Origin: an uncultured virus (IMG/VR IMGVR_UViG_3300011008_000014)
Taxonomy: Duplodnaviria > Heunggongvirae > Uroviricota > Caudoviricetes
IMG/VR virus record: IMGVR_UViG_3300011008_000014
Length of the DNA: 64,000 bases
Direction: 5' to 3' (one strand)
The translations under genes were made by a program, and so were the position numbers. Position 1 is the stretch's first letter; every line of letters begins with the position of its first letter. Below are positions 2,853 through 42,340 of this stretch, piece after piece. A model generated the notes under the pieces. It saw only the letters and a program-made list of their open reading frames with translations, had not been told where the DNA came from and did not search any database.

Positions 2853-3197
2853 ATGAAGAAGTTAGTCGAAATAATAAATAAGGTGAAAGCCGCCATCACT
2901 GAGGAGATTGCCAGTGAAAAGGCTGCTGGTTCTGACTATGCTCACGCAAATGTCAGAGATTTTGCCAACTGCGAGATTGAAGTCACCGTGTCGGCTGACC
3001 GTGTTACAGAAGTTATTATCTACCACTATGACGAAGATGGAACGCTCAACGAGCATCAGTCGCCATTGCTGGAGGATAAGATAGCATCAGAACTGCCCGA
3101 ATGGTACGATGTCGATTGTGAGGATGATGACCCACGCAACGACTTTGAGAAATGCCCTTCGCTGGCAAATGGCTGGTTCTTCAAGAATCAGTGGTGA
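2853..3197 (+). CDS. Hypothetical acidic protein
   Basis: ATG after A-rich leader; first gene of the early operon. Confidence 0.7.
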   Translation: MKKLVEIINKVKAAITEEIASEKAAGSDYAHANVRDFANCEIEVTVSADRVTEVIIYHYDEDGTLNEHQSPLLEDKIASELPEWYDVDCEDDDPRNDFEKCPSLANGWFFKNQW

Positions 3198-3487: not shown

Positions 3488-3574
3488 GGAGGAGTGGCTG
3501 AGTGACTGAAAGCACCACACCGCTAACGTGGCATACGGAATCCCGTATCGCAGGTTTGAATCCTGCCTCCTCCG
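3488..3574 (+). tRNA. tRNA-Ser(GCT)
   Basis: Acceptor GGAGGAG/CTCCTCC, G73, anticodon loop CCGCTAA, long variable arm, T arm GCAGG-TTTGAAT-CCTGC. Confidence 0.9.
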
Positions 3575-3778
3575 CAAGTCTTGTATCAGCACACGCACCA
3601 CAAGCAAGTACATTTGGAAGCGTTAAGGGGCGCGACCTCTATAGAAAGCGAGCCTAAAGAATGTGGAAAGTATCGGCGTAATCCCCAAAAAGGCCGAGAG
3701 GGTAAGCATTTGGGTGGAATCCCCATAAAATCCTTGGGGCTGTTGCCTGTGACGACATGGCGGTGTGCGAGGTAAAAC

Positions 3779-3850
3779 GGGATGTTCGTCTATCGGTTAG
3801 GACTACAGGTTTTCAACCTGTCAAGAGGAGTTCGACTCTCCTACATCCTA
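3779..3850 (+). tRNA. tRNA-Glu(TTC)
   Basis: Acceptor GGGATGT/ACATCCT, anticodon arm ACAGG-TTTTCAA-CCTGT, T arm AGGAG-TTCGACT-CTCCT. Confidence 0.9.
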
Positions 3851-3958
3851 CAACTTATCCGTATCTGAACTGTAGGAAATTAGGCTCTGAGAAATGCTCG
3901 TCTGATAAGTGACGTGCTGGATGTCGCCCCTGTCAATTCGGGCAGGGGCATTTCAAAC

Positions 3959-4030
3959 TGGCTGCTGGTGTAATTGGTAACACTACAGATTTTGGTTCTG
4001 TCATTATGGGTTCGAGCCCCGTGCGGCTAA
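3959..4030 (+). tRNA. tRNA-Gln(TTG)
   Basis: Acceptor TGGCTGC/GCGGCTA, D arm GTGT-AATTGGTA-ACAC, anticodon arm ACAGA-TTTTGGT-TCTGT, T loop TTCGAGC. Confidence 0.88.
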
Positions 4031-4045
4031 CAAAAGGGAAAGAAG

Positions 4046-31857: not shown

Positions 31858-32174
31858 AAGGCAGAACGAAGAAAGAACGGCGGGCTATCGGAAAGTTAGT
31901 CCGCTGGATTCGCAAACAGCAGAAAAGGGGCTATGACCGATTCTTGTATAACAAATTCAGTCAAAGAGTAATAGCCGCCAAGTCAAAGGATGTTCCGACG
32001 ATGGGCGAGTTAAGGATGATGCCTTACACGCCCGAACATGATGACTCTGTGATGGCATTTGCCACGATGATGTATGCTGATAAGATTATTGCGGAAAGCA
32101 AGGAGTCGGCTTATGCCATACCTGTAATTAGCAACGTAGACCAAATATATACGCTTCATGTGAATGGTGAATAA
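31854..32174 (+). CDS. Small protein ending in a copy of the major capsid protein C-terminus
   Basis: AYAIPVISNVDQIYTL versus capsid AMAVPVVHNVDQIYTL. Confidence 0.7.
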   Translation: MKGRTKKERRAIGKLVRWIRKQQKRGYDRFLYNKFSQRVIAAKSKDVPTMGELRMMPYTPEHDDSVMAFATMMYADKIIAESKESAYAIPVISNVDQIYTLHVNGE

Positions 32175-40494: not shown

Positions 40495-40568
40495 CGCGGG
40501 TTGTTAGCAGTTGGTAGCTTGCCACTTTGACTTGGTGGAGGTCGCTGGTTCGAGCCCAGCACCCGCAA
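40495..40568 (+). tRNA. Initiator-type (fMet-body) tRNA with GAC (Val) anticodon
   Basis: C1xA72 mismatch, G2-C71, C3-G70, A11-U24, A73, variable loop AGGTC, T arm GCTGG-TTCGAGC-CCAGC; anticodon arm CCACT-TTGACTT-GGTGG; promoter TAACTTTG at 40471-40478. Confidence 0.85.
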
Positions 40569-40603
40569 CAATAGAATTAGTAACAATCAAATCGAAAAGA
40601 AAG

Positions 40604-40996
40604 ATGAATTTAGAAGGATTGGAAGTATTGACGCTGCAAATCAAGCGCGACAGCTTCAAGGAAATCTTAAAGGGCAGACAGAAAACGGAGCACCGCTTCG
40701 TCTACCCGCGTAACGCCAAACAGTATTTGGTGGAAAAGGACAACGGTGACGGCACATGCGATGTCGAGGTTGTGGGCTATGATGCCCTACAGCTTATCAA
40801 TGGCCGTCAGAAGGATGCACCCCGTCTGCTGGTGAAGGTCGAAGGTATCAATGTCATTCAGATGGATAACGATGAGACTGGAGAGCCGCTGACCTTCGTA
40901 GACAACGGCGAGACCTACTATGTCACGCAGATGGAATACCAACTCGGCGAAATCTTGCAGAAAGAAAACTGCGAAAGGTTCGACAACGAGGATTAG
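40604..40996 (+). CDS. ASCH/PUA-like domain protein
   Basis: LTLQIKR..F.EILKG.QKTEHR...YDALQL.NG...DAPRLLV. Confidence 0.75.
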   Translation: MNLEGLEVLTLQIKRDSFKEILKGRQKTEHRFVYPRNAKQYLVEKDNGDGTCDVEVVGYDALQLINGRQKDAPRLLVKVEGINVIQMDNDETGEPLTFVDNGETYYVTQMEYQLGEILQKENCERFDNED

Positions 40997-41051
40997 CAAG
41001 CCCATTCAGACAAGTTCACAATATGTTCAACTTCAAAAAACGATTAGCTGA

Positions 41052-41306
41052 GTCAGAAACAGAATCAATCGAATCACTGGTGTCACGTCTAACGTGAACG
41101 GTGCAGGGAACAGACGACTGGCAAACGGTGGCCGCTATGAGGCTGGCCGTGCAGGTTTCGGAACCCGTGAACAGCGTCGCCAAGACCTTCGTGTGACGTT
41201 TGCACGACAGGCTCGTCAGAACGTAGCCGCCATGCGTGCCCGTGGTGTGCGTGGCGCAGCACTCCGAAGTGCAGCCCTTCGTGCTGCCGCAGGCTCTGAG
41301 GGTTAA
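41052..41306 (+). CDS. Small Arg-rich protein, proposed GTC start (84 aa)
   Basis: Frame opens right after TGA at 41049 with GTC; no early in-frame ATG; context TAGCTGA-GTC-AG. Confidence 0.65.
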   Translation, partial: VRNRINRITGVTSNVNGAGNRRLANGGRYEAGRAGFGTREQRRQDLRVTFARQARQNVAAMRARGVRGAALRSAALRAAAGSEG

Positions 41307-41478
41307 TCCCAAAGACCGACGAACAGGCACAGGCCATCACCGTCAACATCTGATGGTGGTGGCCGTTCTGTTTAACGGAAGAGTTAAATAAAGTGAGTAA
41401 CAAGAAAATAACCCGAAAAATATTTGGTAAATCAATTTATTTGCTTTATCTTTGCACAATAAAATAGTAACAAGCGAT

Positions 41479-41676
41479 ATGGCATATACGAAACAGGAGA
41501 TAGATGACTTTCGTAGCAAGTTCTATGATGCTTTGCTGGCTGTGAAAAGCAATGGAAAGCCCTTTCTTACAGAGAAGGAGGCGCATCATATTGTAGACGG
41601 ATATACTAATGAGTCGCTGGCACAGGATATGAGGTTCAACACCCCCGAGTCGCTGGCACAAATTTTCACGATGTAG
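41479..41676 (+). CDS. Small hypothetical protein with its own promoter
   Basis: TTTGG...TATCTTTG upstream; internal ESLAQ duplication. Confidence 0.7.
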   Translation: MAYTKQEIDDFRSKFYDALLAVKSNGKPFLTEKEAHHIVDGYTNESLAQDMRFNTPESLAQIFTM

Positions 41677-41680
41677 CCGA

Positions 41681-42340
41681 GTCAGTTTACAGAAAGCAAA
41701 TCAACAGGTAGAACGCGCACTGACGCGAAAGGGTATAACCCATTCATCAACGCCGATGGAACACGCATCCCGTCGTGCGTTCAAACGTGCTCTCCGTGCT
41801 TCAAAGAGTGCCATGCGCTCAAAAGGCCGCAATCCTAACTATTGGATGGTCGATGTTCATTCTAAACGTGAATATCAAGGAATGCGGATGTATCTAACGC
41901 CCGACAAGAAATCGGGTGTCGCAATAACCAAGGATGGCAATATCACATCCTTATTCAGCAATTCTACAGAAGGAGGCCGTATGGCCAAGCTGCTGACTTT
42001 TGCCGTTGCAATGGGAGGTAGGAAACTGGACTGCTTCGGCGGCGGTCTACAGAACATGTACGCCCGATTCGGCGCAAAGGCCGTGGCACAGACTCCCTTT
42101 GATGAACAATATGCACCGAAGGGATGGGATGGACGGCATCTGCCAGTGGTGGCAATGGTGCTGCCTAAGTCTGTAGGGGCGATGATGCGGGCATACGACA
42201 GGAACAGGCGCGTGGACTTGAACAAAGTACGCGAATATCCCGATTATGATTCAATGATTGCAGCCCGTGACAGGTCTATGAACAGGGGAAGTAACACCGT
42301 GGCCGCTGCCTTGCGAACAGCATTGGGCGGCTCAAACTAA
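41681..42340 (+). CDS. GNAT-like-fold basic protein, proposed GTC start (alternative ATG at 41756)
   Basis: ITSLFS...G....LL..AV..GG.KLDCF...L..MY..FG motif; GTC is in frame 4 nt after the upstream stop, context TAGCCGA-GTC-AG. Confidence 0.65.
   Translation, partial: VSLQKANQQVERALTRKGITHSSTPMEHASRRAFKRALRASKSAMRSKGRNPNYWMVDVHSKREYQGMRMYLTPDKKSGVAITKDGNITSLFSNSTEGGRMAKLLTFAVAMGGRKLDCFGGGLQNMYARFGAKAVAQTPFDEQYAPKGWDGRHLPVVAMVLPKSVGAMMRAYDRNRRVDLNKVREYPDYDSMIAARDRSMNRGSNTVAAALRTALGGSN

Follow-up and report, generated by a model that had tools for sequence, protein, structure and literature searches.

Why is the anticodon arm of a phage tRNA complementary over ten nucleotides to the start contexts of two genes that appear to begin with GTC? 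The question arises from a 64,000-nt stretch of DNA from an uncultured gut virus of the class Caudoviricetes (IMG/VR record IMGVR_UViG_3300011008_000014), which is called the window below and was analyzed at its full length. ARAGORN called an initiator-type tRNA with the anticodon GAC (40529-40531) at 40495-40569. tRNA positions 32-41, TTGACTTGGT (= UUGACUUGGU; 40527-40536), form the arm of the proposed pairing; its partners are start context 1 (GCTGA-GTC-AG, GCTGAGTCAG, 41047-41056) and start context 2 (GCCGA-GTC-AG, GCCGAGTCAG, 41676-41685). All of these sites lie on the plus strand; tRNA positions follow tRNA numbering, and mRNA positions are counted relative to the GTC start. As an earlier note on this DNA described, all ten positions pair at both sites in antiparallel orientation if G-U is allowed, and the single U/C difference between the sites opposes G39. 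Four of the ten pairs at site 1 are G-U, as are three of the ten at site 2. The note proposed that start sites may be chosen by this extended tRNA-mRNA pairing. Our analysis indicates that the GTC codons at 41052 and 41681 very probably mark starts and are read by the initiator-like tRNA(GAC) next to them, a judgment drawn from sequence comparison, and that the extended pairing is limited to position -1 and perhaps -2; a ten-base helix was not supported.

Within the window, the match itself was not exceptional. The exact motif TAGCYGAGTCAG occurs in just these two places (41047 and 41676). The G-U-tolerant pattern RYYRRGTCRR, searched on both strands, gave 8 occurrences against 11.3 expected, and at least 8 were obtained in 88/100 shuffles; complementarity of this kind is therefore not rare. 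GCYGAGTCAG with up to one mismatch gave 8 matches (5.6 expected), and the 12-mer with up to two mismatches gave 5 (5.7 expected). Since no motif enrichment was seen in the window, the case rests on ORF (open reading frame) context and on relatives. The calculated free-duplex energies at the two sites were -10.3 and -13.2 kcal/mol, compared with -4.6 for the anticodon hairpin, and the sites ranked 2nd and 6th among the 631 GUC sites on the plus strand; GUC sites at 31982 and 42897, which are not starts, had equally good energies. Of 32 GAGTC copies on the plus strand, two, namely both sites, head an ORF of at least 40 codons without a canonical start upstream. These results indicate that the two sites are real signals through their ORF context, and that the ten-base pairing is statistically unremarkable.

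The tRNA combines an initiator-like body with an unusual anticodon arm. In its acceptor stem, CGCGGGT/ACCCGCA, C1 and A72 are mismatched; the discriminator A73 lies at 40568. The anticodon arm (40522-40538) has the stem CCACT/GGTGG and the loop UUGACUU. As stated in the earlier note, position 37 is U (read from the loop TTGACTT), and the pairs 29:41, 30:40 and 31:39 are A-U, C-G and U-G, respectively. With the Rfam tRNA model the window tRNA scored 26.5 bits, slightly short of the gathering score of 29. Bacteroides phage BS-TP2 and a human faecal phage clone carry the same tRNA. Viral contigs scanned with a pattern gave at least 107 stretches, and at least 84 sources had a complete tRNA, counting BS-TP2, the faecal clone and the window. 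The family alignment comprises 27 distinct tRNA sequences. In this alignment, 99.3% of the cloverleaf cells were paired, with compensatory changes at 11 of the 20 pairs, which was equalled in 0/500 shuffles. The named hosts were all Bacteroidales (B. salyersiae, a Parabacteroides isolate and a Prevotellaceae metagenome-assembled genome). The pattern scan of genome contigs gave mostly chance matches, with two true family members among the at least 120 loci listed. No family tRNA with a base other than U at 37 or at 38, or with G39 and a base other than G at 40, was found in the scans, whose results were mostly chance matches or other tRNAs.

Within the family, positions 1 and 72 never formed a Watson-Crick pair (C-A in most; C-U in loci L226, L229 and L471; A-A in the Bacteroidales genome G134). 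A11:U24 (alignment columns 12:27) and the pairs G2:C71 to G6:C67 were present in 27/27 aligned sequences. Judged as sequence features, the formylation determinants G2:C71, C3:G70, G4:C69 and A73 were likewise invariant in all 27, the discriminator being A throughout. A11:U24 in the D stem belongs to the list of tRNAfMet-type features. The family thus has the 1:72 position without a Watson-Crick pair, A11:U24, and the acceptor-stem determinants with A73 that are expected of an initiator; it lacks the anticodon CAU and the three consecutive G:C pairs at 29-31:39-41. An elongator tRNA-Val(GAC) would be expected to have a paired 1:72 and a purine at 37, whereas all 27 sequences have the 1x72 mismatch and U37. 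Every family member has the anticodon GAC, and the loop UUGACUU was invariant except for C32 in L004. The stem was more variable: bases 39-41 were GGU, ACU, AGU or GGA, the pair 30:40 was CG in 22 sequences and GC in 5, and 31:39 was UG in 21 and UA in 6.

A scan for any initiator-like acceptor stem retrieved 53 distinct CAU tRNAs in addition to the GAC family, and no other recurrent anticodon. These phage CAU initiators resemble the family in the CGCGGG...CCCGCA-A acceptor stem and in general architecture; they differ in the CAU anticodon, a CUCAUAA-type loop with A37 in 49/53 (U37 in three and G37 in one), and normal AUG starts. Only 8 of the 53 have three G-C pairs in the lower anticodon stem. 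The loss of these pairs, which had been put down to pairing with the mRNA, is thus real in the window tRNA but less distinctive than had been supposed.

Three other tRNAs were noted beside the family. A different GAC initiator-like tRNA at L339 301-373, in a locus of 659 nt, has C1xC72, the loop UUGACGA (G37, A38) and two G-C stem pairs. The tRNA at L242 2486-2559 (minus strand) is family-like and of the initiator type; its anticodon loop, UUGACUUC, is 8 nt long, and its lower stem contains three G-C/C-G pairs. ARAGORN assigned it the four-base anticodon GACU, and GAGTC was not found in the 2.5 kb downstream of it. The L339 and L242 tRNAs were left aside as variants for the covariation check. 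At L577 2050-2201 (minus strand) in genome G134, the family tRNA with A1xA72 is followed directly by a tRNA-Asn(GUU) and then by the ASCH gene.

The arrangement of GTC-headed ORFs downstream of the tRNA was conserved. Among the matches listed, 61 sources extend 1,142 nt or more downstream of the tRNA, and every one of them had GAGTC 400-481 nt past it, just after an ASCH-like gene that always lay between the tRNA and the first GTC-start ORF (synteny in 61/61); the remaining 23 of the at least 84 sources extend at most 420 nt downstream of the tRNA. In all 61, small Arg-rich ORFs start at RYNGA-GTC-R without a canonical start upstream, and second and third copies of GAGTC lie farther downstream in many sources. 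In 48 distinct contexts, the frame set by GTC was open for 51-219 codons, the other two frames closed quickly, and the stretch from the upstream stop to GTC contained no canonical start. Immediately 5' of GTC, the in-frame codon was TGA in 34 of these contexts, AGA in 8 and CGA in 6. Three contexts have no in-frame ATG, GTG or TTG; the first such codon lies 10 or more codons into the frame in 39 and nearer than 10 codons in 6, and in some ORFs it appeared as late as codon 48 of 78 or 62 of 68. When GA was not required in the scan, on the sense strand it nevertheless preceded 37 of the 47 GTCs that head an ORF, compared with 1 of 59 on the antisense strand. Three candidates without GA (L008@1871, L025@1482 and L074@1536) were set aside as they were without family features and looked like chance frames.

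In the window, GTC-start ORF 1 (41052-41306, plus strand) has 84 codons and is Arg-rich, with an in-frame TGA directly 5' and its first canonical start, a GTG, at codon 15. Its N-terminal motif RINR(I/V)(T/A)G is conserved and lies 5' of any canonical start. GTC-start ORF 2 (41681-42340, plus strand) has 219 codons, its first ATG at codon 26, and a match to phrog_2563, of unknown function. In its homologues in L250 and L253, the frame starts at GCTGA-GTC-AG, spans 222 codons and reaches its first ATG at codon 54; the stretch KAN..VE.ALTRKGI.HS, which lies 5' of the ATG of the window ORF 2, is conserved between them and ORF 2. Pfam and PHROGs assigned a function to neither GTC-start protein of the window. 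In the wider set, the proteins are small and Arg-rich with Gly-rich C-termini, and the N-terminal motif V-x-R-R-I-N-R-V/I-A/T-G, located before any canonical start, is conserved across subfamilies. A profile of the small proteins gave three matches in 401 Bacteroidales genomes; all of them start at GCYGA-GTC-AGA and all carry the tRNA, once on another contig. Existing annotation does not reflect this arrangement in BS-TP2 (L001, PQ571275): gp53 (3526-3720) is annotated from an internal ATG 11 codons past the conserved GTC, and the record has no tRNA feature at the tRNA position 3003-3075. Taken together, GUC-start decoding in the phages of this tRNA family is strongly supported by comparative evidence.

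All GTC-start proteins were also seen to have a short Gly-rich tail (GLSGG, GLSNG, GMSGG, LGGSN or GSEG) and an N-terminus of the form V-R/A/G-R/K-R; the 219-residue product of ORF 2 has the same kind of tail as the small proteins. The tail may serve as a shared signal for targeting, processing or packaging.

We examined how far the bases flanking GTC follow the tRNA. Over 54 distinct contexts, the flank consensus was R-5, Y-4, N-3, G-2, A-1, GTC and R+4; -2 and -1 are fixed in this set by the GAGTC anchor and were checked separately without it. The bases were G 47, A 6 and T 1 at -5; C 37 and T 17 at -4; T 34, A 11 and C 9 at -3; A 35 and G 19 at +4; and G 36, C 12, A 5 and T 1 at +5. In the majority class of tRNAs, with GGU at 39-41, -5 was R at 43/43 sites, -4 was Y at 43/43 and -3 was Y at 35/43, leaving A-3 opposite G39 at 8/43 sites; C+5 opposed U32 at 11/43. 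Five distinct tRNAs, including those of L003 and L004 (85% identity to the window in the ASCH protein), have 29-31/39-41 = AGU/ACU. In this ACU class, 7/7 start contexts were still GC(T/C)GA-GTC, so that G-5 and C-4 were kept and C-4 opposes C40. Site 1 of L003 is identical to site 1 of the window from -5 to +20 despite the flipped tRNA stem, and context 1 is likewise shared by BS-TP2 and L004. In one genome, the tRNA stem is UCUCU/GGAGG (A41), yet G-5 was retained in the mRNA. Because stem changes were compensated inside the tRNA with the mRNA flanks unchanged, the stem is selected to pair with itself and not with the mRNA. The covariation check thus spoke against the predicted coupling of -3 to -5 with 39-41, and since conservation of G-5 and C-4 does not depend on the tRNA stem, some reader of the flank other than the tRNA must exist.

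The match on the 3' side of the codon fared no better. R+4 was found at 158/174 ATG starts in the same loci; because it is equally common there, it is not specific to the GAC tRNA and is uninformative on U33, and the specificity of +4/+5 for U33/U32 that the extended match implied was also contradicted at +5 by the C+5 sites noted above. An account of G-5 and C-4 as part of a hairpin or palindrome was dropped, as the symmetry of CTGAGTCAG is missing from the commonest context, GCAGAGTCGC. Nor does the idea that the mechanism suits a phylum that largely ignores Shine-Dalgarno (SD) sequences agree with the data: AGGAG or GGAGG was present ~8 nt upstream at 12/19 later GTC sites compared with 7/174 ATG starts (it was not present at the two window sites), and the tRNA is therefore no simple replacement for an SD sequence.

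By contrast with -3 to -5 and +4/+5, the base at -1 fits pairing with the tRNA. A(-1) was present at all 48 distinct ORF-qualified sites, which were anchored on GAGTC and have it by construction, and also at L067@2044, a bona fide family member found without the anchor. At the ATG starts in the same loci (n = 174), the -1 base was T in 107, A in 42, G in 11 and C in 14, and T stood at -1 in 47/91 ATG starts of the window. In E. coli, tRNAfMet variants at A37 prefer mRNAs in which the -1 base complements position 37, and A37U favours A(-1) (PMC10018350). A(-1):U37 pairing at GTC starts is plausible on these grounds, as is the note's explanation of the unusual U37 by mRNA pairing, in that A(-1) lies opposite U37 in keeping with the published quadruplet pairing. 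Because -2 is G rather than A, pairing of -2 with U38 would be a wobble at best. Start-site choice by tRNA-mRNA pairing beyond the codon is therefore plausible for A(-1):U37, and perhaps for G-2:U38, but not for the remainder of the match.

We consider it moderately probable that the initiator tRNA(GAC) reads GUC starts and that only the codon-adjacent part of the match acts through the tRNA. The two decamers would then be the start contexts of two phage genes beginning with GUC, and the phage-encoded initiator-type tRNA (40495-40569) would read GUC in the ribosomal P site. By analogy with an engineered E. coli GAC initiator, the host valyl-tRNA synthetase (ValRS) would charge it with valine via A35, C36 and A73. 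The same analogy suggests formylation of the charged tRNA and its use by IF2, both of which are expected because the tRNA keeps the initiator acceptor stem. A(-1) would pair with U37, and G(-2) possibly wobble with U38, to give a start helix of 4-5 bp, which would explain the odd U37. This U37:A(-1) helix would be the mirror image of the A37:U(-1) quadruplet pairing of normal tRNAfMet. G-5 and C/U-4 would serve as a conserved mRNA signal read by some other component, and R+4 would be a general feature of start contexts.

The full ten-base model, in which the lower stem 39-41 opens and the start is selected by a 10-bp helix that it forms, together with the loop 32-38, on the mRNA, is very improbable. 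The pairing does exist at both window sites, the computed duplexes are more favourable than the hairpin, and the GGU class keeps R-5 and Y-4 throughout and Y-3 mostly. However, this agreement breaks down where the tRNA varies, with a C-C mismatch (C-4 against C40) at 7/7 ACU-class sites, an A41 tRNA accompanied by G-5, and stem changes compensated within the tRNA; within the GGU class itself, A-3 and C+5 interrupt the helix at 8/43 and 11/43 sites, and three or four of the ten pairs are G-U. Moreover, U33, which the helix would take up, forms the U-turn in tRNAs. The earlier note's alternative, that the RNA is an antisense or guide regulator pairing with the two mRNA sites outside the ribosome without decoding, draws on the same 10-nt complementarity and favourable free-duplex energy, but appears extremely improbable: the full cloverleaf covaries strongly, the T-loop, D-loop and discriminator are conserved, half of the complementary stretch lies inside a stem that covaries with its own partner strand, and variant lineages no longer have the complementarity at -4 or -5. 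A further possibility is that GTC is not a start at all, that the ORFs begin at later canonical codons, and that GAGTC is a transcriptional, processing or DNA-level signal beside an odd elongator tRNA-Val or a tRNA remnant. A later ATG, GTG or TTG is available in 45/48 ORFs, gp53 of BS-TP2 is annotated from such an internal ATG, the PHROG profile of ORF 2 aligns from residue 29, and CTGAGTCAG is a near-palindrome. Against this, three distinct ORFs have no canonical start and others have their first only late in the frame (codon 48 of 78 or 62 of 68), N-terminal motifs are conserved 5' of canonical starts, the 1x72 mismatch is kept by three different base combinations, the SD-like sequence lies at start-codon spacing from GTC, and the motif is always in the ORF frame and on the sense strand only. 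We regard this possibility as improbable.

An unlikely but more serious alternative is that only the three anticodon bases read GUC, that the flank RYNGA...R is read by 16S rRNA, IF3 or a phage protein such as the ASCH protein, and that U37/U38 serve other ends, for example to keep the tRNA out of elongation, away from modification enzymes or safe from host anticodon nucleases. The conservation of G-5 and C-4 regardless of the tRNA stem, the presence of G at -2, where pairing with U38 would select A, and the strict synteny of the ASCH gene all agree with it, and phage tRNAs are reported to alter their anticodon loops and so escape host nucleases (PMC10264068). [quoted passage not shown]

Several points weigh against initiation at GUC by this tRNA with U37 reading -1. 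The sites share common ancestors, and the counts therefore overstate independent support. The -1:37 comparison is confined to the contrast between types, CAU/A37 and GAC/U37; it has two states and no correction for phylogeny, and positions 37 and 38 are invariant in the GAC family. The base at -2 is G and not A, the Watson-Crick partner of U38, and L067@2044 keeps A at -1 with T at -2. The invariant GA lies in an in-frame TGA in 34/48 contexts, and another component could read it. Substitutions by codon position before the first canonical start (12/11/17 and 21/17/19) were uninformative. The RNA evidence is limited to the presence of the stretch from the ASCH gene to ORF 1 in two RNA libraries. 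Finally, having one G-C pair or none at 29-31:39-41 would weaken P-site selection in E. coli.

To our knowledge, all natural initiator tRNAs read AUG-type codons with CAU, and non-AUG initiators are known only as engineered tools. A literature search of incomplete coverage found no paper on a natural non-CAU initiator tRNA, and none with a precedent for pairing beyond -1. The closest parallel is an engineered E. coli tRNAfMet with a GAC anticodon (the G34C36 mutant), which initiates at GUC with formyl-Val (PMC2268962). The phage tRNA resembles it in the initiator body (1x72 mismatch and formylation determinants), the GAC anticodon and the GUC start, and charging by ValRS would be expected on this analogy. 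It differs in being natural and conserved in many phages, in its loop UUGACUU (U32, U37 and U38, as against a CUGACAA-type loop), in lacking the three G-C anticodon-stem pairs, and in having target genes with a fixed RYNGA-GUC-R context. With the quadruplet pairing described in PMC10018350, it shares the complementarity between the base 3' of the anticodon and the base 5' of the start codon, U37 here standing opposite A(-1); the published effect, however, is a modest modulation in the normal AUG system, while in the phages the pair is swapped and the mRNA base is fixed. Streptomyces sigR also has a natural GTC start codon, which the normal initiator tRNA reads poorly and IF3 represses, without a dedicated tRNA (PMC5472188).

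Like the phage GAC tRNA, phage suppressor tRNAs alter the decoding of a subset of genes and make expression depend on the tRNA. They recode stop codons of late genes and act at elongation or termination, whereas the GAC tRNA would act at initiation and on a sense codon. We classify the family as initiator tRNAs in which the anticodon has been reassigned and which have a start signal of their own. If this is correct, a conserved GAC initiator with matching GUC-start genes would represent a natural reassignment of a start codon, and a new way for a phage to tie the expression of some genes to its own tRNA. A broader proposal, which we hold tentatively and rate a little short of even, is that these Bacteroidales phages possess a natural orthogonal initiation system, in which tRNA(GAC), probably carrying formyl-valine, would read (G)A-GUC through U37/U38 and the anticodon, and a small regulon of basic proteins could be made only once the tRNA is expressed. 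It would be the first natural non-CAU initiator, and a natural swap from A37:U-1 to U37:A-1 that demonstrates quadruplet reading of a start codon. With its fixed A(-1) opposite U37, the system also lends itself to a natural test of extended codon-anticodon pairing, which is debated for initiation, and the tRNA with its start context would be a ready-made orthogonal pair for synthetic biology in Bacteroides. For annotation, gene callers miss or truncate GTC-start ORFs, and ORFs without ATG, GTG or TTG cannot be called.

The ASCH-like gene of the window (40604-40996, plus strand) begins with ATG and matches phrog_625, of unknown function; the corresponding protein in phage BS-TP2 is annotated as an ASCH domain protein. 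A Pfam search with the product of 40604-40996 gave no match. ASCH domains are predicted RNA binders, and the protein is for this reason a candidate to interact with the tRNA or with the GCNGAGUC signal. The unit formed by the tRNA, the ASCH gene and ORF 1 is closed by a terminator-like hairpin (41332-41364, plus strand) with a 14-pair stem followed by a T-rich tail; the folding energy of 41300-41400 was -42 kcal/mol (z = -7.2). Contigs from two metatranscriptome libraries of one study span the ASCH gene and ORF 1 and end at 41328 and 41335, where the hairpin begins. Such contigs, which show the presence of a stretch and not transcript ends, strand or translation, are a hint of expression.

Between the two GTC genes lies a 65-codon ORF with an ATG start (41479-41676, plus strand); the first base of start context 2 is also part of its TAG stop. 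It had no family match in PHROGs or Pfam. Because the second GTC sits 5 nt past this TAG, re-initiation there is possible. The sequence TATCTTTG (41440-41478), 5' of the ATG at 41479, resembles TAnnTTTG, which we take to be the consensus of the Bacteroides -7 promoter motif. The ORF and the second GTC gene may form a separate transcription unit. Within the same ORF, GAGTCGCTGGCACA occurs twice (41611-41624 and 41647-41660; peptide ESLAQ), and GAGTCGCTGGAG recurs in two other genes of the window (39771 and 62286); none of these GAGTC copies is in start position. Three further tRNA genes, Ser-GCU, Glu-UUC and Gln-UUG, lie on the plus strand of the window at 3488-4031.

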